A stretch of DNA of 63,294 nt, filler included, from Anaerolineae bacterium (GCA_029262755.1; 6 parts of 6 records of this genome joined end to end with filler, not necessarily neighbours in it), one strand, 5' to 3'; shown: positions 1 to 57,458, counted from the first letter of the whole stretch. Notes: generated from the sequence alone by a model not told the origin. Numbers and translations: made by a program.

Positions 1-848
1 CGCCGAACACGGAGCTTGGCTTCCTCGGTTCGATGAAGGTCAGCTCGCAGGTTCCGGTCGGCGTTCAGAGCTTCGTGGACATCGAGAGCTCGGACAAGGC
101 CGTATACGCCTTCGAGGGCGTTCCGCCGGAGCAGGGCGCGATGACGCTGTACGCGCCCCTGATCCGCAAGCAGTTCTTCGGCTACGACACGGGCATCTCG
201 GTTGTGAACCCGAACGCGGGTGACATCGACGTGACGGTGACGTACATCGGTGGTGACGCCGGTGGCTTGAGCTCGTGCGCGGGCCAGCAGTTCACGCACG
301 GCCCGGTGACGATCGCCGGTGGTTCGAGCTCGGTGTTCTATCAGGGTCCGGGCGGCAACAGTGGTTTGCCGGACGGGTGTGTGGGTTCGGCCGTCATCGA
401 GGGCTCGGGCAACATCCTGGCCATCGTGAACGACTCGCTGAACTTCACCGAGCAGTCGGCGGCGTACAACGCAGTGGGTCCGGACATGGGCGCCACGAAG
501 GTCGCATTGCCGCTGGCGCGTCGCCAGCACGTGGACGCATGGAAGGTCACGACGGGCATCCAGGTGATGAACGTTGGTGACGCGGCTGCGAACGTGACGA
601 TCACGTTTGCGGACGACAAGGGTACCCAGCTGAACGGTTGTGGCGGCGCTTGTACGGCGACGGTCGCTTCGAACGGTTCGCACACGTTCTACCCGGGCGC
701 GAACGGCCTGACGGTTATGCCGTCCGGCACGTACGGCTCGGCGGTTGTGACCTCGGACCAGGACATTGTGGTGATCGTCAATGACGCCAGCGAGACCGGC
801 GCCATCGACGCAGCTACCTACAATGGCATCAAGGCCGACAGCAACTAG
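1..848 (+). CDS. S-layer-like secreted repeat protein, paralog 1 (5' part outside the window)
   Basis: Two internal repeats: (LYAPLIRK/VALPLARR)-TGIxVxN...GSAVI...IVND...YNA/G. Strong similarity to the ORFs at 1105, 2934 and 18133. Followed by a strong terminator. The S-layer role is inferred. Confidence 0.75.
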   Translation, partial: PNTELGFLGSMKVSSQVPVGVQSFVDIESSDKAVYAFEGVPPEQGAMTLYAPLIRKQFFGYDTGISVVNPNAGDIDVTVTYIGGDAGGLSSCAGQQFTHGPVTIAGGSSSVFYQGPGGNSGLPDGCVGSAVIEGSGNILAIVNDSLNFTEQSAAYNAVGPDMGATKVALPLARRQHVDAWKVTTGIQVMNVGDAAANVTITFADDKGTQLNGCGGACTATVASNGSHTFYPGANGLTVMPSGTYGSAVVTSDQDIVVIVNDASETGAIDAATYNGIKADSN

Positions 849-907
849 TAGCGCTCGACACCCATGCCTGAGGTCGGCTTAGGCCGGCCCGACGGGATCG
901 AAATTCG

Positions 908-944
908 ACCGGGCTCCGCGAGAAATCGCGGGGCCCGGTTTTTT
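908..944 (+). terminator. Rho-independent terminator
   Basis: ACCGGGCTCCGCGA-GAAA-TCGCGGGGCCCGGT stem followed by a T run, 60 nt after the stop at 848. Confidence 0.85.
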
Positions 945-1104
945 CGTTCGTTGCGCGAGGGCGGTGGGCTCGGGGAGGGTTGGACTCGCAACGGAAACGG
1001 GCGTTCCCAGTTGTATTCGGGCGTGGCGTCCCCGGGAGAGGCGGGAGCGTGTCAGACCGGGGAAGCGGCGTGAACGATTCCAGTGCGTGCGGTGGAGGAC
1101 GAGC

Positions 1105-2634
1105 ATGAGGCGCAAGGATTGGGGCAGGAGTGCGGGGCTAGGAATCGGTATGGGTCTGGCGTTGATCGGCCTCACCGCTCGCACGGGGACGCACGTATCG
1201 GCCCGTCCCGATGCACAAGAAAGCGGGATCACGATGGGCGGGGTGTCCGGCATCCAAGTGCAGAATCTAGATCCGGATCGTTCGGCCACCATCGCCTCGC
1301 GACTGTTCCCGCAACTCGGCGGTCAGCAAGCGGTCACGCTCACCTCGCCGAACGTGCCGGTGGATAGCGCCGCGAACGTGTACTTGGGCGAGAGACGTAC
1401 GGAGCGCGGCTTGTTCTCCGGCGTCGTGAGCTCCGACCGGCCCATCGCAGCCATCGCGCGCACGGATTGGCACGAGCGGGGTGCCGCTGCGATCTACGCA
1501 AACGTCCGGGATGGAACGCATGTCGTCGTGCCGCTGATCATGATCGACTACGCGGACTCGACCTCCGCCGTCACGATCCAGAACGCCGACGTGACGCAGG
1601 CGGTGGACGTGCGGATCGAGCTCCGATCCGCGACGTCGCCGGACGTGGTGCTGGAGCGAGGGATCAAGATCGCTGGTGGCGCCTCCGTGACGCTGGACAT
1701 GGCGCAGGATCCGGCGTTCGCGAGCGTCGAGTCCAATACGCCCCTAGGTTTCCTTGGATCGCTGCACGTGATGGCGGCCACGGCCGTCGGCGTGCAGAGC
1801 TTTCTCGACATCGGCAGGACGCAGCAGGCCGTGAGCGGCTTCGCGGGCGTGCCGATGGAGCAGGCGGCGAGCCGACTGTATGCGCCGTTGATTCGGCGCC
1901 GAGCCTACGGCTACGACACGGGCATTGCCGTTTCGAATCCGGGCGCGGAGAGCGTGAACGTAACGGTCCGGTACACCGGCAGCGGCGGCACGGGATGGAG
2001 CCAATGCGAGGGGCGCGCCTTTGTTCACGGCCCCGTCGAGATCGCGGGCGGTTCGAGCACGGTGTTCTACCAAGGACCGGGCGGCGGGAGCGGTTTGCCG
2101 GATCGCTGCGTCGGCTCTGCCGTGATCGAGGCGACCGGCGACGTGCTCGCTGTCGTGCATGACTCGCTGAACTTCACCGAATCTGCCGCGGCCTACAACG
2201 CCGTGCCGTTCGCGGAGGGCGGCACGCGCGTCGCCTTGCCGCTGATCCGTCGGCAGCACGGCGCCCGTCATCGGCTGACGACGGGCATCCAGGTGATGAA
2301 CATCGGCGACGAAGTCGCCAACGTGACCCTCCACATGCGCAACGATCAAGGACGCGCGCTCACCGAATGCGGCCGGGCATGCGGAGCGGCAATCGGACCC
2401 AGCGCATCGCATACGTACTATCTTGGTAGTGGGGGGCTCACCGCACTGCCCATCAACACCTTCGGTTCGGCGGTCATCACCGCGGACCAACCGATCATCG
2501 TCCTCGTGGTGGACGCGAGTGCGTCCGGAACGATCGACATGGCCTCGTATCTGGGGATGCCCGCCCATCAAGGAGCGGAGAGCATCGGTCTGCCGATCTT
2601 GTATAGTGCGCCACCGGTGATGCAGGGGCCGTAG
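1105..2634 (+). CDS. S-layer-like secreted repeat protein, paralog 2, with C-terminal LP tag
   Basis: GGAGG RBS before ATG 1105. Signal-peptide-like N-terminus, four GI/AVxVxN repeats, C-terminal SIGLPIL. Confidence 0.8.
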   Translation: MRRKDWGRSAGLGIGMGLALIGLTARTGTHVSARPDAQESGITMGGVSGIQVQNLDPDRSATIASRLFPQLGGQQAVTLTSPNVPVDSAANVYLGERRTERGLFSGVVSSDRPIAAIARTDWHERGAAAIYANVRDGTHVVVPLIMIDYADSTSAVTIQNADVTQAVDVRIELRSATSPDVVLERGIKIAGGASVTLDMAQDPAFASVESNTPLGFLGSLHVMAATAVGVQSFLDIGRTQQAVSGFAGVPMEQAASRLYAPLIRRRAYGYDTGIAVSNPGAESVNVTVRYTGSGGTGWSQCEGRAFVHGPVEIAGGSSTVFYQGPGGGSGLPDRCVGSAVIEATGDVLAVVHDSLNFTESAAAYNAVPFAEGGTRVALPLIRRQHGARHRLTTGIQVMNIGDEVANVTLHMRNDQGRALTECGRACGAAIGPSASHTYYLGSGGLTALPINTFGSAVITADQPIIVLVVDASASGTIDMASYLGMPAHQGAESIGLPILYSAPPVMQGP

Positions 2635-2749
2635 CGTGACACGATGCGCGTGCGCAGTAGGCCGCGCTTCTGGGGATTCCGCAAGGGAGATGCTTCCAAT
2701 GAACTCGCGATCAACCGCTCGTCGTAGTCGACTTTGGCGCGTTTCGGTC

Positions 2750-2826
2750 GGCGCGAACGGCCTCGACGTGATGCCGGCCGGCTCCTATGGCTCGGCCGTG
2801 ATCACCTCGGATGAGCCCATCGCTCT
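2750..2826 (+). pseudogene. Fragment of an S-layer-like paralog
   Basis: Encodes GANGLDVMPAGSYGSAVITSDEPIAL, matching GANGLTVMPSGTYGSAVVTSDQDIVV of paralog 1. No intact gene surrounds it. Confidence 0.7.
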
Positions 2827-2933
2827 CCGTAGCGCACGCGACCGCGTGGGCCCACATTGGCGTTGGGGCGGGTGAACGCGGAGTGCGGTCTACAACGCCT
2901 CCGTAGCCAATGGTGTTCTCCCATGGCAACTAG

Positions 2934-4475
2934 ATGAATTGTCGATCTTGGGGCGCATTGCTGCTCATCGCGGCTGGATTTGGACGCGTGCCGGGGGGGC
3001 CATCCAACCCACTGTCCGCCGACGCGCTTGAGCCCATCCTGACCCAAGAGCCGAGTACTTCGGGAGTGATCACGCATAACGATGGATTCTTGGGAAGTGC
3101 GGTTATCACCTATACCGCCTATTCCCCCGTCATCGGCCAGAGATGGGTTCGTTGGCGAAGGATGCACCCGAGCGCACCGTTGTCATTGTTCTTGCCTGAC
3201 TGGTCTGTGCTTCCGAAGGGGCCAGTTAGCGTTCGACTCGAATCCGATCTTCCTGCCACATCCATCGTCAGAACGGATTGGCCACGGGCCGGCGGCGCTT
3301 CTATGTACGGGAATGCTATTCCTGACCGGGAGCTTCATGTGCCGCTCGTCCTGATCGAGGATGGAGGTGCGCATACCGTGATCTCCGTGCAGAACGCCTC
3401 CCGCGATGTTGCCGCGCACGTTGAGTTGATTCTGCTGGCCGCTGAAGGTGCCATGCCGGCAACCACGCTGCGTATTGAGATTGACGCTGGCGCCTCGGTG
3501 GACGTCGATACACGCAATCGGCCATTCTCGAATAGCCTACCGGACACCGGTGGCCGGTTTGTTGGAGCCATGAAGGTCACGTCTGACACTCCCGTGGCTG
3601 TTGCAGCGCAAATCGTTCTTGACCAAGATGCGAGTGCGGCGTTCGGTTACGCCGGTGTGGGGCGTTCTCAGGCTGCTCGTCGGCTGTTCGCACCTCTTAT
3701 CCGGCGCAGATTCCGCGGATACGACACCGGAATTGCGGTCGTGAACCCACAGAGTCATCCAGTGGAGGTGTCGGTCATCTATCGGGGATCGCACGCCGGC
3801 GGCGTGAGCGAATGCGCCGGAACGATTCTCCGGCATGGCCCGGCGGCCATGCCGGCGCACTCCACCAGGATTTTCTACCAGGGACCTGGAGGCGGCAGTG
3901 GACTCCCTGACGCATGTGTGGGCTCGGCGGAGATTGAAGCGTCGGACGCCATTGTTGCCGTCGTGAACGATACGCTGAACTTCGGGGAACATAGCGCCGC
4001 GTACGAGGCGATCCCGGCGACGGGTGGCGGCACAACCGTGTTGCTGCCGCTGATACGGCGGCGTCATCTTGATTCGTTGCAGCTCACTTCCGGAATTCAG
4101 GTCATGAACTTGGGACCTGAACGCGCTCTAGTGCAATTGCGCTTACTCGGCACTGGCGTAGAGCAATTTCCCGTGTGCGGCCGAGCGTGCATCGCTCACA
4201 TCCCTCCTCTTGAAAGCCGTGTCTTCTACCCTGGCGCGCATGGGGTCGAATCGCTTGCGGAGGGTGCACGAGGCATAGGTATCATCGACTCGAATCAGCC
4301 GGTGGCTGTAATCGTCAACGAGGCAAGCGAGTCGGGAGCTGGGGACATGGCGACTTACGTTGGAGCCACGTCGGGGAGGCTTGGAGCGGATCTAGGACGT
4401 TGTCCCGAAGGCGGTGGCTGGCCGACAGGGATTGGTTGCCAGTTTCTTCCAAGCCTCGGAAATGGTGGCAGGTAG
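2934..4475 (+). CDS. S-layer-like secreted repeat protein, paralog 3 (diverged)
   Basis: Shares LFAPLIRRRFRGYDTGIAVVNP, FYQGPGGGSGLPDACVGSA and TSGIQVMN with the other paralogs. Ends QFLPSLGNGGR. Confidence 0.8.
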   Translation: MNCRSWGALLLIAAGFGRVPGGPSNPLSADALEPILTQEPSTSGVITHNDGFLGSAVITYTAYSPVIGQRWVRWRRMHPSAPLSLFLPDWSVLPKGPVSVRLESDLPATSIVRTDWPRAGGASMYGNAIPDRELHVPLVLIEDGGAHTVISVQNASRDVAAHVELILLAAEGAMPATTLRIEIDAGASVDVDTRNRPFSNSLPDTGGRFVGAMKVTSDTPVAVAAQIVLDQDASAAFGYAGVGRSQAARRLFAPLIRRRFRGYDTGIAVVNPQSHPVEVSVIYRGSHAGGVSECAGTILRHGPAAMPAHSTRIFYQGPGGGSGLPDACVGSAEIEASDAIVAVVNDTLNFGEHSAAYEAIPATGGGTTVLLPLIRRRHLDSLQLTSGIQVMNLGPERALVQLRLLGTGVEQFPVCGRACIAHIPPLESRVFYPGAHGVESLAEGARGIGIIDSNQPVAVIVNEASESGAGDMATYVGATSGRLGADLGRCPEGGGWPTGIGCQFLPSLGNGGR

Positions 4476-4606: not shown

Positions 4607-5515
4607 TTAGCGCGGATAGAGCGCCACAACCGACGGCACCGCGACGAAGCCCGGCGCGCCTTCCGGCGGGGTGGCGACGAGGAGGCCGCTGGATGTGCCG
4701 CCGTCGAGGTTGAGGGCGATGTCGATGGCGAGGTCGCTTTCGACGAGCCAGGTGGCGAGGCCGTGTAGGGTGAAGGTGCCGCCCGGGGCCACGATGAACA
4801 GGAAGCGGCCGTCCGTGTCACGGGCGACGACCGTGCGGCGGGCCGGGAGGCCGCCGTCGTCGGGGAATCCGTGGAGGCCGCCCGGCTGGACGAGGAGCGG
4901 GAAGGACTGGAGGGCGGCGGTGAGCGGCTCGTCGGGGTTGAATGGCTGTTGTTGGAGCCAGCGCAAGTCGGCGTGGCCGGCGGCGTCGATGGCGAGCATG
5001 CCGGCGAAGGCGCCGTAGGTTGCGCCGTATTGGACGCTATCTGCGATGAGTAGCCCCGTTGCGTGGAACTCCGCGGTGAAGTAGCCGCCGTTGACCACGG
5101 CTAGCGCCCCCGTGTCCGCGAGCCAGCGGTCGAGCGAGCGCGCTTCGCCCGGGGCGTAGGCGACGTCGAGGCGGATCTGCGCGGGGTCTACGCGCAGGAC
5201 GTACACGCGTTCGACAGCGCGGCCGGAATCCGCCTCGCGGAGGATGTGGCTGCGCTCTAGGCCTGGAGCGAGCACCGTCCATGTTCCGTCGGACAGTGGC
5301 AGGCTAGACGGTGCTGTGATCGCGCTGTCCGGGGCTGCGGGTGCGTTCGAGGCGGTTGGCGCTGTGGGAATGGGCGGTGGCATCGGAAGCGCGCAGCCGA
5401 CGGCGCACGAAAGCATGGTCAGCAGGAGGACCTGTGATGGGATCCTCAGTACGGTGGCGTGAGCCACGACTGCCCTCGAACTCAGTTTGGGCCGCGCTTG
5501 CGCGAGCTGGACCAT
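4607..5515 (-). CDS. Phosphodiester glycosidase (NAGPA/DUF2233-like) family protein, possible lipoprotein
   Basis: NGGYF, ARRTVVA and ALNLDGGTSS motifs. Lipobox-like AVGC followed by a P/A/T linker. Start uncertain. Confidence 0.8.
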   Translation of the reverse strand: MVQLAQARPKLSSRAVVAHATVLRIPSQVLLLTMLSCAVGCALPMPPPIPTAPTASNAPAAPDSAITAPSSLPLSDGTWTVLAPGLERSHILREADSGRAVERVYVLRVDPAQIRLDVAYAPGEARSLDRWLADTGALAVVNGGYFTAEFHATGLLIADSVQYGATYGAFAGMLAIDAAGHADLRWLQQQPFNPDEPLTAALQSFPLLVQPGGLHGFPDDGGLPARRTVVARDTDGRFLFIVAPGGTFTLHGLATWLVESDLAIDIALNLDGGTSSGLLVATPPEGAPGFVAVPSVVALYPR

Positions 5516-5906
5516 GGCTTGGCGCCGCGTCACGCGCGCGACGGGCGTGCCGAGCGGGGGCCGTCCGGCGAGACCGGGGCGCGACGGCCGCGCGCACTCT
5601 AGCGGTGAGGCGGGAGGTCGTCAACGCGTCGCGGGGAGAGGGGCGAGTTCTCGCATGCCGGCGACCCGGAACTGCGCAAATCCGCAGATCGCGTCGCCAA
5701 CCTATCCGATCCGCCGGACGTGGCCTCCGACAGCGATCCGCCGCCGCGGCGCGGACCTCCATGCGCCGAGGGTTGGCCGATCGGGCGGGCGGCGGCACCA
5801 TGGCGCGAAGAACGGCGGCGACGGCGACCGGGCACGTTCGGCTCGGACCATAGGCCGCGCGCGATGCGCGGAGCTCGTCCGCCATCGGCACGGGAGAGGC
5901 GGCGAC

Positions 5907-10608: not shown

Positions 10609-11988
10609 ATGGTTGGTTCCCCGACGACCCCGACCCGCCGATTCGCGTGGGCCATGGTGGCTACGAGCATGTTGATCGGCGCCGGCCTCATCGGCGGGCG
10701 ATCACTCGTTTCGCGATCGGTCGATGGGAGCTTCGCGGGCTGGGTTTCCGCGGCGCCGTCCGCCCAAGGCGAGGCCTCGTGCCGATGGCGTGTGCTCGAG
10801 CGTGGACCCACGCGCACCCAACACACCTTGGTCGCCCTGCCCGGCGCCGACCTCGTTGCATTCGCCGGTGGAGAGCGCGCTGCGGGACAGGCCACGGTGC
10901 TGGCCGACTTGCAGCGACTACGCGGCAGCGACGGTCAAGGCGCGTGGAGCGCCATGACCGCGACGGGGGCCGGGCCCGCAGCACGGGCGCAGCACGTCTC
11001 GGTCGTGCATGACGAGCCGGGCGGTGATGCGACGATGATCACCTACGGCGGCGTGGACGAGCTCGTGAGCTTCGGCGGCGGTGGCGGCGGAACGTTCACG
11101 TGGCGCTCGCCGCTGGTTGCGGGCGGGGCATCGGCCGCCGGCCGACGTGGCGCATTCGCGCCGCTCGGTCTTGTGGGCGACGCGTTCACGTTGGCGATCA
11201 CCCAGGGCGGAGCGAGCTGGTCGCCGCTTTCGATTCCCGGCCGCCCCCTGGCTGACGCCGCGGCCGTATGGTGGCCGAGTGCGGAATCGATGGTGGTCAT
11301 CGGCGGCCGGCTGAGCGAGGAGGCCACATCGGCCACAGGTGCGCGGCAGCTGATCAGCCTCGGCGGCTCCGAGCCGAGCGTCGAGGTCGTGGAGGACCCG
11401 GGCGGCCCGGCGCCGCGCTACGCGCTTAGCGCCGTGTTCGATAGCGAGCGCGAGCGCCTCTTGATCTTCGGTGGCACGCGCAACTGGCAGAACGGCCGCA
11501 ACGACGTCTGGTCGCTCGACCTCTCCCGCGGTTGGGGCGACGCGACGTGGACCCCGGTGGACGCCTTCGGCCGACCGCCGGCGCGCCGCTTCGATCACGT
11601 GGCGGCCTGGCATCCCGGGCTAAACGCCATGCTGGTCTTCGGCGGGACCCGTAACGGCAGTGATTCTCTAGACGATCTGTGGGCCCTGGACATGTCGGGC
11701 GAACGCCCCACATGGCGTGAGCTCGACCCAGAGGGCCCGACACCCGCGGGCGTCGCAGGCGCAGCCGCGGCGTGGAGCGATGGCGCCGAAGCCATGATCC
11801 TCTACGGCGGCACGACCGGCAGCACGTCGCAGCGCGACGCCTGGGCGCTCGATTGCTCGGTGACGGGCGGTCCATCGCCGACCGTGCCGGTGCCGACGGT
11901 GCCCGTGCCGGCCACGCCGACGCCGGGCGCGACCGCAACGCGGCCTGCGCCGAGCGGCGCGATCCACCTGCCGTGGGGTCAGCGCTAG
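10609..11988 (+). CDS. Secreted Kelch-repeat beta-propeller with PT linker and LP tag
   Basis: Repeated FGG/YGG...W..L..P.R..H Kelch motifs. PT-rich tail ending AIHLPWGQR. Confidence 0.85.
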   Translation: MVGSPTTPTRRFAWAMVATSMLIGAGLIGGRSLVSRSVDGSFAGWVSAAPSAQGEASCRWRVLERGPTRTQHTLVALPGADLVAFAGGERAAGQATVLADLQRLRGSDGQGAWSAMTATGAGPAARAQHVSVVHDEPGGDATMITYGGVDELVSFGGGGGGTFTWRSPLVAGGASAAGRRGAFAPLGLVGDAFTLAITQGGASWSPLSIPGRPLADAAAVWWPSAESMVVIGGRLSEEATSATGARQLISLGGSEPSVEVVEDPGGPAPRYALSAVFDSERERLLIFGGTRNWQNGRNDVWSLDLSRGWGDATWTPVDAFGRPPARRFDHVAAWHPGLNAMLVFGGTRNGSDSLDDLWALDMSGERPTWRELDPEGPTPAGVAGAAAAWSDGAEAMILYGGTTGSTSQRDAWALDCSVTGGPSPTVPVPTVPVPATPTPGATATRPAPSGAIHLPWGQR

Positions 11989-12243: not shown

Positions 12244-12399
12244 GAAGCCGGGTATACTGGCATCGGGCCGTCCCTGCGCCGGTTGCGCCCTCCATCTCTA
12301 ATCCCCGCGAGCCATCCGGCGCCTGTGCGTGCGAGGTCGTCTAGCGGCTGTTCCGCTCTTCCATCGACACCGCACGTGGAACCGCGAAGGATGCACGCC

Positions 12400-13815
12400 A
12401 TGAAACGCACGCGCACGCCGAACGTCCGGTGGCTGTTCGCCATTCCTGTACTGGCCTTGCTCGGCTCGACGGCCTTTGGTGGCGGAGCGGATGCGGCGCC
12501 GGCTGCCCAAGCCGGCGTCAGTTGCGCTTGGGAGCGCTTGGATCGGGGCGAAGATCGCGAGCAGCATTCGTTGGTGCCGTTGCCCGGCGTCGGCGTGCTC
12601 GCCTACGGCGGCGTACAGCGCACCTCGCGCGGCGCGACAATCCAGGACGACGTGCACACGCTGGATCTCGTGGGGAGCCCCGGCGGCGCGTGGTCGGTCC
12701 TCAACGCCGGCGGTTCGTCCGCCGGTAAACGCGCGGAGCACATTGCCGTACTGCGCCCACGAGACGGCGGTGCTTCACAGGTCGTCGTGTACGGCGGCGT
12801 GGACGCGTTGGAGTCGATTGGTGGCGGCGGAGGCGGCACCTTTACCTGGCGCTCGCCGCTGACCGCAGGGGGCGGCGTTGCACTCAGCCGCCTGGGCACA
12901 TTCGCGCCGCTCGGTGTCGTGCGCAAGGGCTTCCGTTTGGATGTCGACGCCCAGGGTGGCGCCTGGACGGCTTTCGATCCGGAAGGGACCAGCGTGGCTC
13001 TGGCCGACGCCGCCGCGATCTACTGGCCTGCCGAGGATGCGCTGCTCGTGCACGGAGGACGCACCAAGGAGGAGGTCACCTCCGTCACGAACGACCTCCA
13101 TCTGGTCACCTTGGGCGATTCGCCGACCTGGAGCAAGCTCGATGTCGCGGGCGGCCCCACGGACCGCTTCGCGCATTCGGCCATCTACGACGCGGCGGGC
13201 GACCGGATGGTGCTGTTCGGTGGAACGCGCGACTGGAAAGCGGGTCTGGACGATGTGTATGCGCTCGATCTGTCCGGTGGCGTGGACGGCCTGGCCTGGA
13301 CGAAGCTCGAGCCGACAGGCCGCGCGCCGTCTCGACGTTTCGACCATGCGGCGGCGTGGCATCCCACCCTGCGCTGGATGGTCGTGTTCGGCGGGACCCG
13401 GGACGGCAACCGCGCGCTTTCCGACGCGTTCGTGCTCGACGTGAGTACGGACACGCCGACGTGGGCCCCCCTCGACGCTTCGGGCGCCTCCCCCGCGGCA
13501 TCGCGAGGCCCGGCCGCCGCCTACAGCGCGGACAGCGACGCCCTCGTGTTCTTCGGCGGTCAGGACCGTGGCACGACGCGCCGCGATAGCTGGGCGCTGC
13601 GCTGCACGATCCCCGCGACACCCACGCCGACCGAGGCGCCGATCACCGCGACGCCGACGCCGGAACCGGCCACGGAAACGCCGACCCCGGAGCCGGCGAC
13701 CGAGACGCCGACCGACGTCCCAGCTACGAACACGCCGCAGCCGCCGACCGAAACGCCGACACCCGAGCCGCCTCCCGCGATCTACCTTCCTTGGGGAGAG
13801 CGCGAAGCGGGCTGA
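12400..13815 (+). CDS. Secreted Kelch-repeat beta-propeller paralog with PT linker and LP tag
   Basis: Signal peptide ending ADA, Kelch repeats, TPTPEPATE repeats, ends AIYLPWGEREAG. Confidence 0.87.
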   Translation: MKRTRTPNVRWLFAIPVLALLGSTAFGGGADAAPAAQAGVSCAWERLDRGEDREQHSLVPLPGVGVLAYGGVQRTSRGATIQDDVHTLDLVGSPGGAWSVLNAGGSSAGKRAEHIAVLRPRDGGASQVVVYGGVDALESIGGGGGGTFTWRSPLTAGGGVALSRLGTFAPLGVVRKGFRLDVDAQGGAWTAFDPEGTSVALADAAAIYWPAEDALLVHGGRTKEEVTSVTNDLHLVTLGDSPTWSKLDVAGGPTDRFAHSAIYDAAGDRMVLFGGTRDWKAGLDDVYALDLSGGVDGLAWTKLEPTGRAPSRRFDHAAAWHPTLRWMVVFGGTRDGNRALSDAFVLDVSTDTPTWAPLDASGASPAASRGPAAAYSADSDALVFFGGQDRGTTRRDSWALRCTIPATPTPTEAPITATPTPEPATETPTPEPATETPTDVPATNTPQPPTETPTPEPPPAIYLPWGEREAG

Positions 13816-13984: not shown

Positions 13985-16900
13985 CTACCGTCCCTCCAGC
14001 CCCTTGAGCAGGGCGGCGATCTGCGGGTCCCCCGGCGCGAGCGCGGCCGCGGCGCGCGCGGCTTCCAACGCCCGATCACGGTCGCCGGCCCCGTCGTAGG
14101 CCGTGGCGAGATCGGCGTGGGCGCGAGCGTCGCCCGGTGTGAGCACCACGAGGTCGAGGGCGACCAGGACCGCTTCTTCGTGTGTCCCGACGCGCAGGAG
14201 GGCTCCGAGGCGGGCGCGGATGGCGTCGACGTCGCCCGCGTTGCGGGGGTCGTCGAAGTAGCGCGCCCATGCGTCGACGGTTGCGGCGGCGTCGTCCGCG
14301 CCTCCTCGCTCGGTCAGCGCGAGGGCGAGGGTCTTCCATGGCGCGTTGTAGTAGGGGTCGAGGGCGATCGATTCGCGCGCGGCGTCGATCGCTGCGTTCG
14401 GCTGGTTGGCCAGCAAGACTACGACGGCTGCCTCGTTGCGTACCTCGGGCCAGGTGGGTGCTGCGAACGTCGCGCGTGCGTACGCAGCCGCCGCGGACGC
14501 GAGTCGCATCGATCGCCGCTCGGGCTCGCGCGTCAGGTCGCCCCATAGCCGGTAGGCACGCGCCGAGGCAAGGATAGGCGCCGGCGATCCGGGCGTCCGA
14601 TCGGCGGTGGTGTCGAACAACGTCCCGGAAACAAAGTTTGTCTTACCCGTCTCGCTTTGCTCCAGCGCGATGGACGACAATGTTCTCCAGGAAGAGACGC
14701 CACCCGTTGCAGGGCCACCCGCCCCAACGCCCTGCACCTCGCCGCGCCGGCCCGCGCGCAGGCTCGCCTCTTCGAAGCGCGTGATCGCCGCTGCGAATGC
14801 GGCGTCCCGACGCTCCGCCAACTCGTTCGCATAGCCGTCCAAGAGATCCGGATCGTATTCATCCTCCGCCGCCGAGAGCCCGGCCTGCGCCAAGGCGCGT
14901 GCAAGACGCTCGTCGAGCAGTACGGCGCGCGTGTCCTCCGCGAAGCCGATCCGTATGCGGTAGCGCGGCTCGTTCGGCGCGAACCGGACCGCCGCCTCGT
15001 AGCGTTCGACGGCGCGGTCGAGGAAAGCCTCCGCGCGGCCGGATTCGCCCTCGGCGGACAGGCCCATGACCGGGCTCTCCCACACGAGCAGCCCCTCTTT
15101 GTACAGCGCGTCCGCAGCCGTATGGCCCACGGTCACCGGGAGGGCTAGGACCGCGGCGAGGACGGCGATCGCCGCGGCGCGGGCCGTGCATGCGCGAATG
15201 GTCGCGGTCGAGATTGCATGGGCGATCGACGTCAAATGCGAGGTCACGCTCGAATGCTCGCTCGACAACGAATGTGAGGTCGAGGGCTCTTGCACGGTCG
15301 AATGCACGGCCGGATGCACGAGCGATTGCACGGTCGAATGCTCGGTTGTGGCCGAATGCGCGGTCGAATGCGCGGTCGAATCCCCTAGATACGCCGCGCG
15401 CTGAGACGCCGGAGTCTCGTCGCGCGCTCCCTCTGTTTTCCCGGGCGTGAAGGAATCCGGAGGATCCAAGCGGGTCTGAAGGTCACCTTCGGCGCCGAGG
15501 GCCAGTGCCGCCTCGCGACCGGCATACCAAACGGTCGCACCGAGGACGACGAGAAGGAAGAGTCCGAGTTGCGCGATCGCACCCGCGACCGCGTCGCCGA
15601 CGCGTGTGACCGTCCAACCGGCGATCAGCCCCTGCCCGACGAGCTGCGCACTGAGCACAGCGCTCACGCCGAGCACCGCAACGAGACGATGCCGGCCGAT
15701 CGCCGCGATCGCCCAAGCGCCCGAGACGCTCGCGACGAGCAGTACCGCGACGGTCGCCGCACCGCCGCCGACGAGGCCGGGACGTGCGAACCCGAATATC
15801 AGCGCGGCGCCGACCACGAGCGCCGCGAACGCGGGATCCAGCGACCGCGCGCTGGTCGCTCGGTCTGGTACGGACGTGAAGGCGCCGTCACGGGTAGCGT
15901 CGATCGCGGGAGTCGCGGGAGTCGCGGGAGTCGCGGGAGTCGCGGGAGTCGCGGGAGTCGCGGACGTCGCAGAGGGCGCGGACGTCGCAGAGGGCGCCGA
16001 CGTCGCAGAGGGCGCCGACGTTGCTGGACTCGTGGCAGTCTCCGAAGCTTCCGAATCTGTCGGTGCCGCAGGAACTGCCTGAGGTGCCGCGTCTGCACGA
16101 GCAGACGAACCAGGACCGTCCGGGAGGGTGATCGCTCCATCGACCGTTCCTGTACGGCGGCGCGACTCGACGGCGACCAGGCTGCCGGCGATTAGCCACA
16201 GGAGGAGCCGGGTGCTGGTGACCGCGAAGCCGACCTGTAGCTCGATCCATGCGGTGATCAGCGCGGCCACGGCGGCCAGGGCGAAGCCGACGTCCGCGGG
16301 CTTTGCGCCCGGCACCGCGTCCATGCTCGTCGCGGCACTCGCGGCACTCGCGGCACTCGCGGTCCCCCCGGTCCCCGTAGTCCCCACGGCGCCCGTGTTT
16401 CCCGCGTCCCCGACGTCCCCCGCATCCGGTGGGCGATCCCAGGACGTGTGCGGACTCCGTGCGCGCCGCCAGGCTGCTGCCGCGAGCCAGAGCGCGAGGC
16501 CGGTCGTCGCGCCGAGGCCGGCGGCCGGACCCGCCAGGCGCGGGCCATCCGCGATGAGCGCGAAGGCGGCCGCGGCAAGCCCGCCTCCCAGCCATGCGAC
16601 GAGCCACGTCGCACGATCGTGTCGTCCCTCCCGGTGTCCCCGGTCGCCCCGGTCGCGATGATGGGGGAGTAGGCCGAGCTGGCGTAGCGCTGCGCCCAAC
16701 GCGAGGGTCAGGAACGCGACGAAGGCCAGCAGGCCGAGGAGGCCCTCCGTGAGCAGGGTGTCGAGCATGAGGTTGTGGGCGCGGTCGGGGACGATGCCGC
16801 GCGGTTCGTCGTGCGCCAGGATGGACGGGTAGAAGGGCGCCCACGTAAGCGGCATCGTTTCCGGGCCCGTGCCGACGAGCCATCGCATCGCGCCGCGCGA

Positions 16901-17944
16901 TTCGAGCGCTGCCACGCTGCCCTCCCAGAGGCGGAGGCGAACGCGGGTCGTGCTGTTGGCCGGGTCGAGGGCGAGTGCCATGCGTCCGACGAGCGGCCAG
17001 TCGAGAGCGGGGCCGAGCTGCGCGCGGCCGACGTTCAGGCCGATCACGCCCACGACCAGGCTGCCCGCGACGAGCACGGTCGCGAGCGCGTGGCGCGTGC
17101 GCCCCGCGCGGGCCGCGGCGGCGAGCGCGGCGACGACGGCGCCCGCCGCGAGGCCGAGCACCGGCCCCCGCGAGCCGGCCAGGACGAGGGCCCACGTGGC
17201 TGCGACGAGGGTTGCGCTCCATGCGGCGAGGGCCGCGTCCCAACGCCGATCGGCGCGCCGGGCCGCGGTCCACGCACGCGCGGTGCCCCAGACAACGAAG
17301 GGCAGTGCCATCGCGAGGTGGGCTGCAAAGAGCACGCTGCTACCGGAGGGGCCGGAGACGCGGGTGACGACATCGCCCAACCACGGTAGGGGGTCAAGAC
17401 GGAAGCGTTGGAGGATGCCGTACAGCGCGGCCGGCCACGCGGAAGCAGCGATGGCGGTGGCCAGCGCCAGGCCCGAATGCCTGCGGGCGAAGGCCAACGC
17501 GGCGAACAGGGCGAGGAGCGCCGTGGTGGTCAACAGCCCCTGGCCGCGATCGGCCGTGCCGAGCAGGCTGGTGGCGGGCGCGACGGATAGCGCGGTCGCG
17601 AGGGCCGCGACGAGCCAGACGGCCAGCGCGGCGCGGACCACGGGGTGGGCGGGGAGCGGGGGGAGAGCCCAAAAATGGTGAAGACGTGCGCGAATAGACG
17701 AGTCGATCGGGTTCCGCTCGTCTCGACGGGACGACCGGGTCGCCAGCAAGCCAAGAGCGGCCACCGCGCCGAAGAGTCGTAGCAGCCGGGCCTTCTCGGG
17801 CTCAAAGATGACGTCCGTGAAGACCACGAAGTGCAGCGGAACGGCGAGCACCGCCGCGAGCGCCGTGGCGCGGGCGAGCTCGCGGCCGGCGGGACGGAAG
17901 GTGGGCGCGGGATTCGACGTTGATAGCGGAGAGTAAGCGTTCAC
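13985..17944 (-). CDS. O-antigen ligase / O-oligosaccharyltransferase-like polytopic membrane protein with C-terminal TPR repeats
   Basis: Many TM helices. YGILQ, AGSRG, RLRLW and GTGPET...DRAHNLMLDTLLTEGLLG (Wzy_C-type) motifs. TPR-like helices at the C-terminus. Confidence 0.82.
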   Translation of the reverse strand: MNAYSPLSTSNPAPTFRPAGRELARATALAAVLAVPLHFVVFTDVIFEPEKARLLRLFGAVAALGLLATRSSRRDERNPIDSSIRARLHHFWALPPLPAHPVVRAALAVWLVAALATALSVAPATSLLGTADRGQGLLTTTALLALFAALAFARRHSGLALATAIAASAWPAALYGILQRFRLDPLPWLGDVVTRVSGPSGSSVLFAAHLAMALPFVVWGTARAWTAARRADRRWDAALAAWSATLVAATWALVLAGSRGPVLGLAAGAVVAALAAAARAGRTRHALATVLVAGSLVVGVIGLNVGRAQLGPALDWPLVGRMALALDPANSTTRVRLRLWEGSVAALESRGAMRWLVGTGPETMPLTWAPFYPSILAHDEPRGIVPDRAHNLMLDTLLTEGLLGLLAFVAFLTLALGAALRQLGLLPHHRDRGDRGHREGRHDRATWLVAWLGGGLAAAAFALIADGPRLAGPAAGLGATTGLALWLAAAAWRRARSPHTSWDRPPDAGDVGDAGNTGAVGTTGTGGTASAASAASAATSMDAVPGAKPADVGFALAAVAALITAWIELQVGFAVTSTRLLLWLIAGSLVAVESRRRTGTVDGAITLPDGPGSSARADAAPQAVPAAPTDSEASETATSPATSAPSATSAPSATSAPSATSATPATPATPATPATPATPAIDATRDGAFTSVPDRATSARSLDPAFAALVVGAALIFGFARPGLVGGGAATVAVLLVASVSGAWAIAAIGRHRLVAVLGVSAVLSAQLVGQGLIAGWTVTRVGDAVAGAIAQLGLFLLVVLGATVWYAGREAALALGAEGDLQTRLDPPDSFTPGKTEGARDETPASQRAAYLGDSTAHSTAHSATTEHSTVQSLVHPAVHSTVQEPSTSHSLSSEHSSVTSHLTSIAHAISTATIRACTARAAAIAVLAAVLALPVTVGHTAADALYKEGLLVWESPVMGLSAEGESGRAEAFLDRAVERYEAAVRFAPNEPRYRIRIGFAEDTRAVLLDERLARALAQAGLSAAEDEYDPDLLDGYANELAERRDAAFAAAITRFEEASLRAGRRGEVQGVGAGGPATGGVSSWRTLSSIALEQSETGKTNFVSGTLFDTTADRTPGSPAPILASARAYRLWGDLTREPERRSMRLASAAAAYARATFAAPTWPEVRNEAAVVVLLANQPNAAIDAARESIALDPYYNAPWKTLALALTERGGADDAAATVDAWARYFDDPRNAGDVDAIRARLGALLRVGTHEEAVLVALDLVVLTPGDARAHADLATAYDGAGDRDRALEAARAAAALAPGDPQIAALLKGLEGR
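15904..16016. repeat. In-frame tandem repeats: 9 bp x6 and 18 bp x3
   Basis: TCGCGGGAG x6 (ATP repeats), then GACGTCGCAGAGGGCGC[GC] x3 (SATSAP). Confidence 0.9.
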
Positions 17945-18132: not shown

Positions 18133-19611
18133 ATGGCATCGGCAACGGGCGCCACTCGATTCCGAGGCCCGGTGCTCGGGCGCGCGGCGTGGATGGCGAT
18201 TGCGCTGGCAGGAGCACTGCTCGTGGTGGGCACGGCGCGTGCTACGGCGCAGGGTGGTATCGCCGGTGGCGCCACGGTCGGCATCGAGTACGCGAACCTG
18301 AGCGGCGCGAAGGCCGACTTGGAAGTGGGTGGGAGGGGCGGTGTCGACTGGAGTATGGCGAACGTGGCAGCGTGCCGATCCGGCGCTCAGTTCCTGCCGT
18401 CCCAACCTGAGATTGTCCCCGAGAACCAAAGCTGGCTGCGGTCTGTGCAAGGTAGCCCCGTCGGCGCCGTGCTGCGTTGGGATTGGCACACGACGGGAGC
18501 AGCCGCCCACGCCAACGCCGCGGCACCCTCTACACGGATCTCCCTACCCTTGGCGCTGATCGACTACGTAACACAGTCGTCGATCTTCATCGTGCGCAAT
18601 CCGAACGACGAGATGGTCTCCGTGACCGCAGAGCTCTTCGCGCAGGGCGAGAGCGCGGCGCTTCGTGTCGTGAATCTCGACATCGAAGCAGGCGGGGTGC
18701 TGAGCCTCGACTTGAACAAGCAACCGGGCTTCCTGGGCGTGGCGCCCAACACGGCCTACGGATTTCTCGGCTCCATGACGCTGAGCGCCGATCGGCCCGT
18801 CGCGGCATGGACGCTTGTGGACATCGCGAGCAGCGACAAGGCCGTGTACGCCTTCGCCGGGGCGCCGCCGGAGTCCGCAGGCGAGACGCTCTTCGCGCCG
18901 TTGGTGCGCAAGCGCTTCTTCGGCTATGACACCGGCATCGCCGTGGTGAACCCCAACGACCGGCCCGTCGAGGTCTCCGTTGACTACGTCGGCGGCGCGG
19001 CGGGTGGGGCAAGCAGTTGCGCCGGCCAGCGCGTAACACACGGGCCGATCACGGTGCCTGCGTCCGGTGGGCACGTCTTCTACCAGGGTCCCGGCGGAGG
19101 CAGCGGGCTGCCGGACGGCTGCGTCGGATCTGCCGTGATCCGGTCCGAGGGCGGCCCCGTGCAGGCGATCGTCAATGACTCGTTCGCGTTCACGCAGACT
19201 GCGGCGGCCTACCCCGCCGTTGCGCTCGAAGATGCGTCCACGATGCTCGCGCTACCGCTCGTGCGACGCGAGCATATGGCGGCGATGAGGATGACGACGG
19301 GCATCCAGGTCATGAACCCGACGGCCGCGACAGCCACGGTCAACATCGAGCTCTTTGGGGATGGCTCATTGCCGGCTTGCGGTCCCGGTTGCCGCGCGGA
19401 GATTCCTCCATTGGGGACCCACACGTTCTACCCCGGAGTCGGAGGGTTCGACGGCTTGCCGCCCGACTCGTTCGCAGCCGGGCGGATCGTCAGCGACGTG
19501 CCGGTCCTGGCGATCGTGAACGACGTCTCGGAAACGGGCCAGATCGACATGTCGACCTACACGGCGTTGCCCTGCGGGGGTAGCGGTCCCCAGCTAGTTG
19601 CGCTGCCGTAG
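18133..19611 (+). CDS. S-layer-like secreted repeat protein, paralog 4
   Basis: DIASSDKAVYAF, LFAPLVRKRFFGYDTGIAVVNP and MTTGIQVMN are nearly identical to paralog 1. Ends QLVALP. Start uncertain. Confidence 0.8.
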   Translation: MASATGATRFRGPVLGRAAWMAIALAGALLVVGTARATAQGGIAGGATVGIEYANLSGAKADLEVGGRGGVDWSMANVAACRSGAQFLPSQPEIVPENQSWLRSVQGSPVGAVLRWDWHTTGAAAHANAAAPSTRISLPLALIDYVTQSSIFIVRNPNDEMVSVTAELFAQGESAALRVVNLDIEAGGVLSLDLNKQPGFLGVAPNTAYGFLGSMTLSADRPVAAWTLVDIASSDKAVYAFAGAPPESAGETLFAPLVRKRFFGYDTGIAVVNPNDRPVEVSVDYVGGAAGGASSCAGQRVTHGPITVPASGGHVFYQGPGGGSGLPDGCVGSAVIRSEGGPVQAIVNDSFAFTQTAAAYPAVALEDASTMLALPLVRREHMAAMRMTTGIQVMNPTAATATVNIELFGDGSLPACGPGCRAEIPPLGTHTFYPGVGGFDGLPPDSFAAGRIVSDVPVLAIVNDVSETGQIDMSTYTALPCGGSGPQLVALP

Positions 19612-46279: not shown

Positions 46280-48691
46280 TCATGGAGCGGTCGCCGCCTC
46301 CAATAACGGCAGGAAGATCCGCAATAGGCGCCCTTCACCGGGGGGCCGGCCGCCGACGCGCGGTGCGTACACCTGAACAGCGCCATCGGAGACGATCCAG
46401 GCAAGGCCGTCGTTTGCGTGAAGGCCCGCGGCGTCGGCGGCGAGCGTTCCGCGCGCGGCTTCCACGGGGTGCGCCGGGTCGCTCAGATCGATCCAGGCCA
46501 GCGAACGGTCGCCCATGCTGCGCGCGGTCGGCGCGGTCACCACCCACGCGGCCGCGCCGGCTCCGGCCTCGCCATCGGCGAGCGCGATCTCCAGCACCGG
46601 GTCGAGTAGGTCCAAGGTGCCAAGCACCCGAGCCTCCGCCCCAGCGCCCACGGGGACGTCGGCGACGACGAGATCGCGGCCGATACCAAGCGCCACGCGG
46701 TCGCCGGCGTGACCGATGCTTGCGGCGGGCATAACGCCGGCTGCGACCGATAGCAACGTGGTCAGACGATCGGCGCTCTCCCTGCGCAGGTCACTCGTGG
46801 CCAGGCCGCAGCCGAACGGCAGGAAGCACAGCAGATGGAGCCGATGGTCTTCCAGGGCAAGGGCGGACGGGCCCGAGCCGTGGAGCGAGACGAGCACCTC
46901 TGCGACTCCCCCTTTGCCGTCCATCTGCAGGATCAGGTCCTGGTCGTCGGACACGTTGACGGCGAGCAGGCCGTCGTCGGCGTCCCACAGCCGTGGCCGC
47001 GTGACGTTGGGGTCGCCCGTGATCGGAGGCGCGATCGTAGCTACGAAGGTGAGGCCGCGGCCCGCGTCGGCGTCACCGTTGGGCGGCGGCTGTGCAACAT
47101 CCGTGTACTGTCGGATTGCTCCTTCCGAGACAACGTACACGTGCTCATCGTCCGCCACGACATCGATGACCTCGTTCGGCCCTTCTCCCGCGAGTTCGTG
47201 GGGCTCGTCCGGCGCGGTGCGCGGCGTCCAACGCAGCAGACCATCCGTGCCGCGCAGCCACGCCGTCTGATCGCCGAGGGCGATTTCTATCGCCGACCAT
47301 GCGCCGACATCGGGACCGTGGACGAGCCGCGTCCGTGCACCGAGCCACCACGTCCGTGTGGCGGATGCGATGAGCAACCGGTCGTCTACGGCCAATAGAG
47401 CGAGTAATTGCTGTGGATTCGCGCCGGCATCGGCATCGGCGGGCACGACGATCCGCGGACCGGAGCGGCTCGGGTCATCGGGATCGAGCACGCGAACGTA
47501 CTTGCCTGCGGACCAGCCGATGCCCGTTGCGCCCCAGGCGACCGCGGCGGCAGACTCCAGGTCCTCCGGAGGCGCGAATGGCTTGACCCGCGGCGACGCC
47601 AAGTCGCGGAAGTCTAGGATCCATCCCTCACGGTTGCCGGCGACGACCACGCGCGACCCGTAGGCGGCCGCATGGTTCGCGCAGCATCGCTCGAAGGTGC
47701 CGCGACTGCGCAGCTCGATCTCACCGTTTGCCTGCGGTCGCAACAACATCCACTCGCCGAGCATCGCGATGTTCGGGTCCGCCCCGTTCCACGATACGAG
47801 TACGAGCGCGCCGTCCGCAACCGGCACAACGTCGCGCAGCGTGGCACCGACCTGTTGCGCCGACGGGGCGTCGGGACGCCACGTCGGCAGGGGCACCGGC
47901 AGACGCGGTTTGCGCATGTCGAAGCGCTGGATCAGATCGCCGGCCGGCAGCCACGCTTCATCACCGACCCAGAGGACGCTCCGAGATAGCCGCCGAAGCG
48001 GGACGTCGGCGACAAGCAGAGGCATGCGGGTGATACTCGGACGGGCATTGTCCGTCCGAAGCTCGTACACGCGCAGGTGATAGCCACCGGCAAGCAGCCA
48101 CCGGCCGCGAACGGCGAGTCCCGTGATGGGAGCGCCGACGGCGGGCGTGACGCTCCCGAGATCGCCGAGAGTCGTCAGCGCGGGATCGAGCGTGACGATC
48201 CGCGAGTGGATGGCCGCGTAGACAGCCCCGTCGTCCGCGGCGAGACCGCGGATGCGGCCGCCGAGCTCCGCGATCACGGCGGGCTGCGAGGCCACGGGGA
48301 GCTGGGCGGCGTACGCCGAGGGGCGATCCGCGAGCGCGATGGTGGATTGGAATCCCGCGGGCGCCGGCGCGTCGAGCGGACGGTCGACCGTAGTGGCGAG
48401 CGTGATGGCGATCGTGAGGACGGTTGCGATCGAGAAGGCGGTGGCGATCGTAAAGGCGGTGGCGACCGCGGGGACGGTGACGACCGCGCGGACGGCGATC
48501 ACTGCGGCGCGACGCACGCGCGCGCTATGAGCGCTCGCTCTCGGTTTACCGTGCAGCAACACGACCGGCGGTCCCGCGCCGGCGTCAAGGTCGGATAGGC
48601 ATGCCTTGGGCGCACATACGTACCGATGCTCGTACGGAAGTCCCGAGGACTTCGAGTGGGGCGTGCGGGAAGCGGCCGTAGGCGAGGGCAT
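46280..48691 (-). CDS. Secreted beta-propeller paralog with LP tag (start uncertain, possibly near 48520)
   Basis: ELGGRIRGLAADDGAVYAAIHSRI family motif, IDLSDP blade, ends RIFLPLLEAATAP. Confidence 0.72.
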   Translation of the reverse strand: MPSPTAASRTPHSKSSGLPYEHRYVCAPKACLSDLDAGAGPPVVLLHGKPRASAHSARVRRAAVIAVRAVVTVPAVATAFTIATAFSIATVLTIAITLATTVDRPLDAPAPAGFQSTIALADRPSAYAAQLPVASQPAVIAELGGRIRGLAADDGAVYAAIHSRIVTLDPALTTLGDLGSVTPAVGAPITGLAVRGRWLLAGGYHLRVYELRTDNARPSITRMPLLVADVPLRRLSRSVLWVGDEAWLPAGDLIQRFDMRKPRLPVPLPTWRPDAPSAQQVGATLRDVVPVADGALVLVSWNGADPNIAMLGEWMLLRPQANGEIELRSRGTFERCCANHAAAYGSRVVVAGNREGWILDFRDLASPRVKPFAPPEDLESAAAVAWGATGIGWSAGKYVRVLDPDDPSRSGPRIVVPADADAGANPQQLLALLAVDDRLLIASATRTWWLGARTRLVHGPDVGAWSAIEIALGDQTAWLRGTDGLLRWTPRTAPDEPHELAGEGPNEVIDVVADDEHVYVVSEGAIRQYTDVAQPPPNGDADAGRGLTFVATIAPPITGDPNVTRPRLWDADDGLLAVNVSDDQDLILQMDGKGGVAEVLVSLHGSGPSALALEDHRLHLLCFLPFGCGLATSDLRRESADRLTTLLSVAAGVMPAASIGHAGDRVALGIGRDLVVADVPVGAGAEARVLGTLDLLDPVLEIALADGEAGAGAAAWVVTAPTARSMGDRSLAWIDLSDPAHPVEAARGTLAADAAGLHANDGLAWIVSDGAVQVYAPRVGGRPPGEGRLLRIFLPLLEAATAP

Positions 48692-48965
48692 GGGCGGCTC
48701 CGTGGTCGGGACGGGACGCGAGGCTCGGGCGAATTGGCTCGGGCGGCGAGCGAGGAGTCGCATAGAGATCGCAGCCCACATCGCGCCTGCGCTTCGCTGC
48801 GCCGATGGTATCGGAACGCACGCGCCTTCGTGTCGCGTAGCCCGGTTGATGACAATGGCCGCGATCGCCCGGGTTCTAGATTACCGCTCTCCATGCCGGA
48901 CGCGCCGCAACACTTCCCCGGCCGCGATGAGCGCCACAGACACCATCAGCAGGTTCGCGACCAGA

Positions 48966-54994: not shown

Positions 54995-55342
54995 GAGCTC
55001 TGATCCTTGAAGTTCCATCCGAGTATGATTGCTTTCCGCAAGGAGGCCGCTCTGGCGGCATTGGGCCAACGCAGTATCACGCTTGGCCCGGGCACCATGT
55101 CACCCGAGACGATGTCACCCAAGTCGGCAGGGCGCAACGAAGGACCGAAAGCACACGCCCAAACGTGGTTCGTTCGGTCTTGGTTTGATGTCGACAGCTC
55201 TGTGATGCCGACACGATGGCCGGCCGCGGAGACGGAGCTTCCACGGGCGTAGCGACTGCGTGCGTGTCTGTTTCCGAAAACGGGCGAATCCGAGAGTGCG
55301 TACGGCGAAGACGTTGCCGACTAGCGGCACCTCTCAGGCCTA

Positions 55343-56896: not shown

Positions 56897-57079
56897 GGCG
56901 AGCCGGCCTGCTTGAAGGCGGCGGATCTCAGCCACGGAGGAGCCGAGGTCGCGCACGTCGCAGCTCAAGGACGTCGTCGCGATCACGTCGCGTGGCACCC
57001 AACCCAGCGGCTGTCGATGAAGCGCTATCGGCGCCTAAAAAGCAACCAGCCCACATCCAAAGGATGCGGGCGGGCGCGG

Positions 57080-57457: not shown

Positions 57458-57458
57458 A

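Follow-up and report, generated by a model that had tools for sequence, protein, structure and literature searches.

The 63,294-base stretch of DNA analysed here (the window) belongs to a draft genome of an Anaerolineae-class member of the Chloroflexota, referred to below as G000, and its first contig (C212, window positions 1-20,786) encodes four paralogous proteins. Judged from predicted structures, these paralogs are a secreted family with four ASRAH-type repeats and a distant likeness to DUF5719. The first repeat lacks the strand that opens the other three, and the models make it probable that such tetrads are completed by a short leucine-proline (LP) strand at the C-terminus of their own chain. 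The original prediction for this DNA had instead described the paralogs as S-layer-like, regarded their C-terminal strand as spare, and proposed that similar LP tags at the ends of other secreted proteins complete an empty groove in trans, which would clip cargo enzymes onto the cell surface without a sortase.

The paralogs and their elements are placed as follows, in window coordinates and all on the forward strand:

3-848, +: paralog 1, its 5' end cut by the contig end; part of repeat 2 and repeats 3 and 4, no tail
147-170 and 501-524, +: strand-1 motifs LYAPLIRK and VALPLARR of paralog 1 (six-frame regular expression)
819-845, +: C-terminus of paralog 1, YNGIKADSN and stop, no tail
1105-2634, +: paralog 2 (P0001, 509 aa from MRRKDWG), signal peptide followed by four predicted ASRAH repeats
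1237-1266, +: start of repeat 1 of paralog 2, GGVSGIQVQN, after the signal peptide and without strand 1
1522-1545, 1876-1899 and 2230-2253, +: strand-1 motifs of paralog 2 (six-frame regular expression)
2575-2607, +: putative C-terminal closing strand of paralog 2, AESIGLPILYS (residues 491-501), an ordered strand in the AlphaFold model
2934-4475, +: paralog 3 (P0052, 513 aa), from the family alignment and the regular expression
3333-3356, 3684-3707 and 4038-4061, +: strand-1 motifs of paralog 3 (six-frame regular expression)
4437-4472, +: tail of paralog 3, CQFLPSLGNGGR and stop, behind a two-Cys loop
18052-19611, +: paralog 4 (P0048), the sole paralog above the Pfam cut-off for DUF5719
18538-18561, 18889-18912 and 19246-19269, +: strand-1 motifs of paralog 4, the first of which (ISLPLALI) was missed by the regular expression and added from the sequence
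19591-19608, +: exact C-terminal end of paralog 4, QLVALP and stop

The start of paralog 2 is set at the methionine that opens the signal peptide (1105); the longest open reading frame (ORF) begins at 964.

The motifs on which the original prediction was built, each centred on a proline-leucine (P-L) pair, are real. A regular expression for the quoted pattern, run on all six frames of the whole window, gave 11 matches: ten lie in frame at homologous positions of the four paralogs, the eleventh is the terminal tag IHLPLVRR, and there is none outside these. In a family alignment of 49 sequences, repeats 2, 3 and 4 each open with P-L (P143, P261, P379 and L380 are invariant, L144 and L262 at least 90% conserved), followed about 12 residues later by T-G-I-x-V-x-N with an invariant Asn (N160, N278 and N399). 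Repeat 1 has this Asn strand too, with N54 invariant in all 49 sequences, right after the signal peptide and with no P-L ahead. Within the family, the P-L pattern does not arise by chance. It had been noticed correctly that no such strand precedes repeat 1 of paralog 2, which directly follows the signal peptide, and that an LP segment comes after repeat 4 in paralogs 2, 3 and 4 while paralog 1 ends without one. The claim that these tails share one register stands for paralogs 2 and 4, where the proline lies 15 and 16 residues past a conserved Tyr, but not for paralog 3, where the distance is 31 residues and includes the two-Cys loop.

The family and its fold

In Pfam, paralog 4 matches DUF5719 (PF18986) marginally, at 27.5 bits against a cut-off of 26.2, and paralogs 1-3 have no match; a scan of the four paralogs with NCBIfam gave none either. 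No S-layer or SLH family was matched by paralogs 1-4 in these two libraries, and nothing found speaks for the term S-layer-like; the modelled fold is that of an ASRAH tetrad. The precomputed PF18986 label is carried by 11 of the 93 family search matches, and a literature search on the name DUF5719 found no paper. The family comprises 903 clusters at E <=0.001 in a representative library, many of them proteins of 1000-1700 aa with two or three modules, and is present in 70 of the 301 sampled Chloroflexota genomes. Each module consists of four repeats in the alignment.

AlphaFold models were obtained for paralog 2 (predicted local distance difference test, pLDDT, 89.8; predicted template modelling score, pTM, 0.88) and for P0011, a natural relative without a tail (pLDDT 89.7, pTM 0.87); the pTM values of 0.87-0.88 point to a compact four-domain body in both. 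When the two models were compared with 48,161 PDB representatives, the top match was in each case TM1070 from Thermotoga (1nc7_A), with Z 14.0 for paralog 2 (root-mean-square deviation 2.4, 106 aa aligned, model residues 253..370, which is repeat 3) and Z 14.6 for P0011. The second was ASRT, the sensory rhodopsin transducer of Anabaena (2ii7_A), with Z 9.8 and 10.4, respectively. The family profile, searched against PDB sequences, also has ASRT as its best match, a weak one (E 0.18), and Foldseek with the whole model returned from the PDB only generic Ig-like or macroglobulin arrays (template modelling score ~0.1), an uninformative outcome.

TM1070 and ASRT define the ASRAH superfamily (de Souza, Iyer and Aravind 2009; PMC2739507). 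In the sections of that paper used here, the fold is given as an eight-stranded beta-sandwich in which a near-invariant Asn ends strand 2 and strand 1 opens with a polar residue followed by a Trp that is well, though not absolutely, conserved. The domains are described as always forming dyads or tetrads, mimicking the TM1070 tetramer, and the Chloroflexi are credited with secreted tetrads fused to amidases; for the extracellular versions, binding of sugars or of the cell wall is predicted. The present family resembles this description in its TM1070/ASRT-type sandwich (models with pLDDT ~90), in its tetrads, and in the Asn, since N54, N160, N278 and N399 each end a T-G-I-x-V-x-N strand as the ASRAH strand-2 Asn does. 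It differs in having no amidase, in carrying the P-L signature in place of the strand-1 Trp, and in a first domain without strand 1, which is apparently supplied by an LP strand from the C- or N-terminal side. The supplement of PMC2739507 on domain architectures may already contain tetrads that lack an amidase. The likeness to DUF5719 extends to paralog 4 and some relatives, which score above the Pfam cut-off, and leaves paralogs 1-3 below it; DUF5719 itself may correspond to the actinobacterial lipoprotein family described in PMC2739507.

The missing strand and the C-terminal tail

For repeats 2 and 3, the structural matches start with the P-L strand (model residues 134..236 and 253..370), so that this strand, of the form hydrophobic-x-x-P-L-hydrophobic-(R), is strand 1 of the domain that comes after it. 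The register originally given, with the strand ahead of each later repeat, was therefore right. Repeat 1, where this strand is missing, has seven strands against the eight of repeats 2-4 in the models of both paralog 2 and P0011, which bears out the incomplete sandwich that AlphaFold had been expected to reveal.

In the model of paralog 2, residues 491-501 form a strand with pLDDT ~94 (blocks 481-490 and 491-500). Among the 50 matches listed for this model, 21 are FN3-like domains (~90 aa) of which 61-84 residues align over a range from ~44 to ~504, a range that would combine repeat 1 and the tail in one sandwich. For the tail-less P0011, none among the 50 matches listed spans the chain in this way, and repeat 1 alone is not among them. 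On this basis, a short LP strand lying 10-30 residues past repeat 4 is proposed to fold back into the place of the missing strand 1 of repeat 1, both in paralogs 2-4 and in roughly half of the family at large. The tail would then sit in repeat 1 of its own chain, rather than being swapped between subunits, and would close the tetrad in cis. A strand that fills its own repeat 1 is self-complementing, and the idea of a spare strand in paralogs 2-4 does not agree with these models.

The tails of the wider family are consistent with this proposal. Of 245 module ends from 232 proteins, 114 count as tail-less, with the stop no more than 8 residues further on, and the other 131 carry a tail. An LP motif occurs no more than 40 aa past the module end in at least 70 tails, with 6 more ending in LP, against 22.4 expected from shuffles, and its proline lies at a median of 16 aa past the module end. 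In all five tandem-module proteins read, which have two or three modules and no other domain between them, every module is succeeded by an LP strand of its own, after which comes a proline/threonine (P/T) linker. In some members the strand is found at the N-terminal side instead (LLYLPDLHS and TYGLPDLHS behind the signal peptide, HTLDLPGRRD ahead of repeat 1), but across the family LP strands in front of repeat 1 show no enrichment (59 of 224, 53 expected from shuffles).

One tetrad subfamily, to which paralog 4 (19591-19608), P0043, P0167, P0169, P0185 and P0188 belong, ends exactly in (V/L)(G/A)-L-P-COOH a few residues past a conserved Cys, and thus possesses just the pre-proline half of the strand. 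In addition, locus L065 of the related genome G290 has two tandem family genes (175-1821 and 1764-3563), each with a proximal LP-like strand and a terminal YFPWGDATRP.

Several observations weigh against the assignment and the fold-back. The placement of the tail depends on where the alignments of structural matches to a predicted model begin and end, and an AlphaFold monomer does not separate complementation in cis from a swap between subunits. Tails are present in just a few of the 49 alignment rows, and co-evolution can therefore contribute little to the modelled tail position. The tail-less P0011 reaches pLDDT >90 throughout repeat 1, so the closing strand is dispensable for the fold in silico. 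As for the family itself, the strand-1 Trp is absent from the profiles of repeats 2-4 (V/L at -3, A/Y/F at -2, then P-L), Pfam ASRT (PF07100) gave no match in paralogs 1-4 at E <=0.1 nor genome-wide at E <=0.01, and DUF5719 is passed by paralog 4 alone, and narrowly.

With its closing strand transposed, such a tetrad would be a novel form of the ASRAH arrangement. It recalls donor-strand complementation, as in chaperone-usher pili, archaeal and bacterial bundling pili, cannulae and AbpX, where the accounts used here describe a sandwich that lacks one strand and is completed by a short amphipathic strand with an aromatic residue. The engineered self-complemented forms described there have the strand at the C-terminus (bioRxiv 10.64898/2026.01.04.697558), as paralog 2 seems to have it naturally. 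The difference is that the present family is known from sequences and single-chain models, with no chaperone or usher, and that its acceptor fold models well without the strand. To our knowledge, in no known donor-strand system is the donor strand placed on unrelated cargo proteins behind a P/T linker.

The LP element in the secretome

The LP tag is a second element, found at the C-terminus of other proteins of G000. A strict tag is defined here as an LP motif within the last 14 residues behind a P/T-rich stretch. The tag-bearing and LP-bearing proteins of the window are:

10609-11988, +: secreted Kelch beta-propeller protein with P/T linker and tag IHLPWGQR and stop (11962-11985); same contig as the paralogs
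12283-13815, +: second secreted Kelch protein with P/T linker and tag IYLPWGEREAG and stop (13780-13812); same contig as the paralogs
46280-48781, -: 833-aa protein ending in IFLPLLEAATAP and stop (46283-46318), read from the sequence
52494-53561, -: protein with a weak Ig-like (Big_1) match in Pfam, ending in YMPLVLANHEL and stop (52497-52529)
54107-55069, -: secreted protein of no known family with tag IHLPLVRR and stop (54110-54133); another contig of the same draft
55343-56998, -: GH88 glycoside hydrolase in which an internal LP element, LFLPMVLRS (56399-56425), separates a T/S-rich linker from the catalytic domain

The two Kelch proteins are paralogous to each other and lie between paralogs 3 and 4. 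In the GH88 hydrolase, the tag-like strand is on the N-terminal side of the catalytic domain. Adjoining the tag proteins, 13985-17944 (-) encodes a multi-pass membrane protein of 1319 aa that contains a Wzy_C/O-antigen-ligase domain and for which a role as O-glycosylation enzyme of the P/T linkers is possible, though only as a guess. Directly downstream of paralog 3 and on the opposite strand, 4607-5533 (-) encodes a secreted phosphodiester glycosidase (NAGPA family).

G000 is a draft of 5.06 Mb in 428 contigs, ~84% complete, and beyond position 20,786 the window consists of further contigs of it joined by runs of N; the tag genes at 46-55 kb are for this reason not physically linked to the paralogs. 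The named relatives of the window proteins are metagenome-assembled genomes of Ardenticatenales, Anaerolineae and Chloroflexi. The GC content is ~70% across the window apart from its last part (57458-63294, 37-38%). G000 has 23 contigs (148 kb) with <55% GC, and these low-GC contigs, including the end of the window, are probably foreign contigs in the bin.

In G000, 102 of the 14,183 ORFs of at least 150 aa end in a strict tag. No more than 10 residues from the stop, a stricter core motif occurs 69 times against ~18 expected, and a looser one 107 times against 11.6. The tag carriers examined have signal peptides and include the two Kelch propellers. Counted from the proline (position 0), the tag has I/L/V at -3 (76%), Y/F/W at -2 (66%), L at -1 (73%), a variable +1 (W 22%, L 18%, R 15%, also I or F), A/L/V at +2 and R at +4 (58%), after which 0-6 more residues follow. 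The strands of the family differ from this at +1, where L is found in 95-100%, and in the basic residue, which is R at +3 in repeats 3 and 4; the basic-residue register of the tags is nearer to that of the closing tails.

A position-specific scoring matrix built from the tags separates family strands from LP sites in likely-real ORFs, with an area under the curve (AUC) of 0.90 for the strands of repeats 3 and 4 and of 0.79 for the closing tails; no p-values are attached to these scores because the family rows are mutually related. Of the control LP sites, 3-6% score at or above the median repeat 3 or 4 strand, so that the likeness between tags and strands is real without being unique. The original observation that the two follow the same pattern thus holds beyond generic LP sites (AUC ~0.8-0.9). 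The terminal LP tag, spread over the genome, is real and restricted to this lineage, and it resembles the strands of the family.

The same element is also found ahead of a domain. In G000, 37 ORFs have a P/T linker, an I/V-Y-L-P element and then a vWA domain ~17 residues past the proline, for example at loci L141 (339-2936), L142 (53-1918, minus strand) and L143 (108-3188); the VWA domain was confirmed in all three of the proteins checked. It is the C-terminal domain in 31 of the 37, and 36 of them have a Cys at a fixed distance past the proline (P+7/8). The C-terminal end of the vWA domain bears a second Cys (IPCP), and the position of the two Cys suggests that they may form a disulfide staple. 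The LP element does not need a free C-terminus, since it also stands directly ahead of vWA and GH88 domains. This suits strand addition, yet the vWA context is unrelated to ASRAH domains. The possibility that the tags are what remained when vWA domains were lost was rejected, given that the stop comes 0-6 residues past the basic residue in most of the 102. The LP element was not found in literature searches, nor in NCBIfam models for the nine tag- or LP-bearing proteins scanned. As far as the literature searches and two family libraries show, its 102 terminal and 37 pre-vWA copies constitute a large undescribed feature of the secretome of this lineage.

Like sortase LPXTG signals, the tags have an L-P core with basic residues behind it and are placed at the C-terminal end of proteins secreted by Sec, but they have neither T-G nor a membrane-spanning stretch and can precede a domain. 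An identity as sortase signals was rejected, and classical signals exist separately in this genome: LP.TG followed by a hydrophobic span and an Arg-rich tail is found in 3 proteins out of six regular-expression hits (for example C376:735-4036 and C393:1487-2422). As these sit on three other proteins, the LP tags form a separate class. G000 has two sortase genes above the Pfam cut-off (C9:3366-3797 and C281:3793-4221) and one fragment. The notion of attachment without a sortase is accordingly compatible with the tags themselves, but the organism does not lack the enzyme.

Seven further genomes were sampled, all of them kin of G000 and each covered for less than one fifth:

G000: 102 strict tags in 5.06 Mb; family present
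G290 (same family as G000): 5 strict tags in 295 kb; tetrad family present
G076: 0 strict tags in 400 kb; family present
G231: 0 strict tags in 400 kb, two plausible tags without linker; family present
G140: 0 strict tags in 400 kb; family present
G182: 1 doubtful strict tag in 369 kb; family present
G043: 0 strict tags in 400 kb; no family match
G094: 1 false-looking strict tag in 400 kb; no family match

Tags and family had been expected to occur together. Both tag-rich genomes, which are related, do hold the family, with at least 5 matches each; in the opposite direction the expectation is not borne out, as four family-bearing genomes show 0-1 strict tags in the parts sampled, and the basic role of the family therefore does not depend on tags. 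Around 12 family genes, a strict tag protein lies within 10 kb in 3 loci and the family gene has a C-terminal tail in 5, figures that are uninformative on co-occurrence because the loci were selected by family. Tail-less and tailed members are found side by side in tag-using genomes, namely in G000 and in loci L144 (tail-less) and L151 of one record set. Many single-module proteins have two LP strands, one proximal and one terminal, and the latter is left without a slot in cis.

Competing readings and their meaning

Three other readings of the LP strands have to be weighed against complementation by the own tail, and not all of them exclude it. In the most serious of these, the LP element acts independently as a signal or boundary motif (for sorting, processing, glycosylation stop or anchoring) that is served by other machinery or by an acceptor such as vWA, and its likeness to strand 1 is convergent, both being short, amphipathic strands that have a Pro kink and end in a basic residue. 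We consider this a substantial possibility, if somewhat short of even. It accounts for an element borne at the end of 102 ORFs, after a P/T linker directly before vWA in 37 (36 with the fixed Cys) and ahead of a GH88 domain, as well as for the departures of the tags from the family strands at P+1 and in the basic register, for the 3-6% of ordinary LP sites that look no less tag-like than the median strand of repeat 3 or 4, and for the uncoupling of family and tags in four sampled genomes. Against it speak the lack of any candidate reader enzyme among the findings and the absence from the tags of the TG, transmembrane stretch and tail of the sortase signals that exist separately here. Strand addition explains the use of the element both at the very end of proteins and before domains better than the reading of a free C-terminus does, and LP strands also stand right after and right before ASRAH tetrads.

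The docking of cargo tags, as originally envisaged, would leave the strand-1 slot open in tail-less members such as paralog 1 and have it filled in trans by the tags, non-covalently and with no sortase. In its full form, a portable donor strand (hydrophobic-aromatic-L-P-hydrophobic-hydrophobic-x-R behind P/T linkers) on >100 secreted proteins of this Anaerolineae-class lineage would complete tail-less, glycan-binding tetrads for sortase-independent display, and paralogs 2-4 would represent a closed, inert form. We regard this as a coherent idea, but an unlikely one. What survives of the empty groove is that repeat 1 has no strand 1 and that a P-L-type strand fits there in the model (21 of 50 rows, against 0 of 50); in paralogs 2-4, however, the slot would be taken by their own tail. 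Docking gains from the resemblance of tags to closing tails and strands beyond control LP sites (AUC 0.79 and 0.90), the terminal strand without a cis slot in many single-module proteins, the coexistence of tail-less and tailed members in tag-using genomes, the two tagged Kelch proteins between paralogs 3 and 4, and the family matches (at least 5) in each of the two tag-rich genomes sampled. These two are, however, the only ones and are kin, while G076, G231, G140 and G182 hold the family with 0-1 strict tags in 369-400 kb each. The tail-less P0011 folds confidently in silico without a filler, the tags depart from the family strands in the two features named above, and docking does not predict the same element at a fixed spacing before vWA in 37 ORFs. 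A co-fold of tail-deleted paralog 2 (41-488) with the last 40 residues of the IHLPLVRR protein, a single job with no control peptides, gave 0.54, 0.16 and 0.31 (median of the three runs 0.31, mark 0.32) and counts neither way.

The C-terminal LP strand of one member could also fill repeat 1 of the next, in a donor-strand exchange that would build fibres or a lattice, which we hold to be quite improbable. This exchange shares its geometry with the cis model, and prediction on a monomer does not distinguish them; moreover, the paralogs are in tandem, as are pairs in other genomes. Chaperone-free donor-strand polymers are known, and the self-complemented form, with the strand moved to the C-terminus, is reported there to be monomeric (bioRxiv 10.64898/2026.01.04.697558). 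However, about half of the family is tail-less (114 of 245 module ends). A short spacer of regular length (median 16 aa) joins repeat 4 to the strand, and in tandem modules the strand precedes the long P/T linker instead of following it, and for these two reasons fold-back in cis fits better than a head-to-tail arrangement.

If complementation in cis holds, the family provides a natural case of a tandem ASRAH tetrad whose closing strand comes from the opposite end of the chain, and deletion of the tail would be a simple handle to open or close a surface module. Were docking in trans true, it would explain how poorly known filamentous Chloroflexota fix ~100 enzymes and binding proteins to their surface, and the eight-residue tag would offer a very small means of display that is genetically portable. 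Under either reading, the LP element, with 102 terminal and 37 pre-vWA copies in one 5-Mb draft, is a large feature of the secretome.

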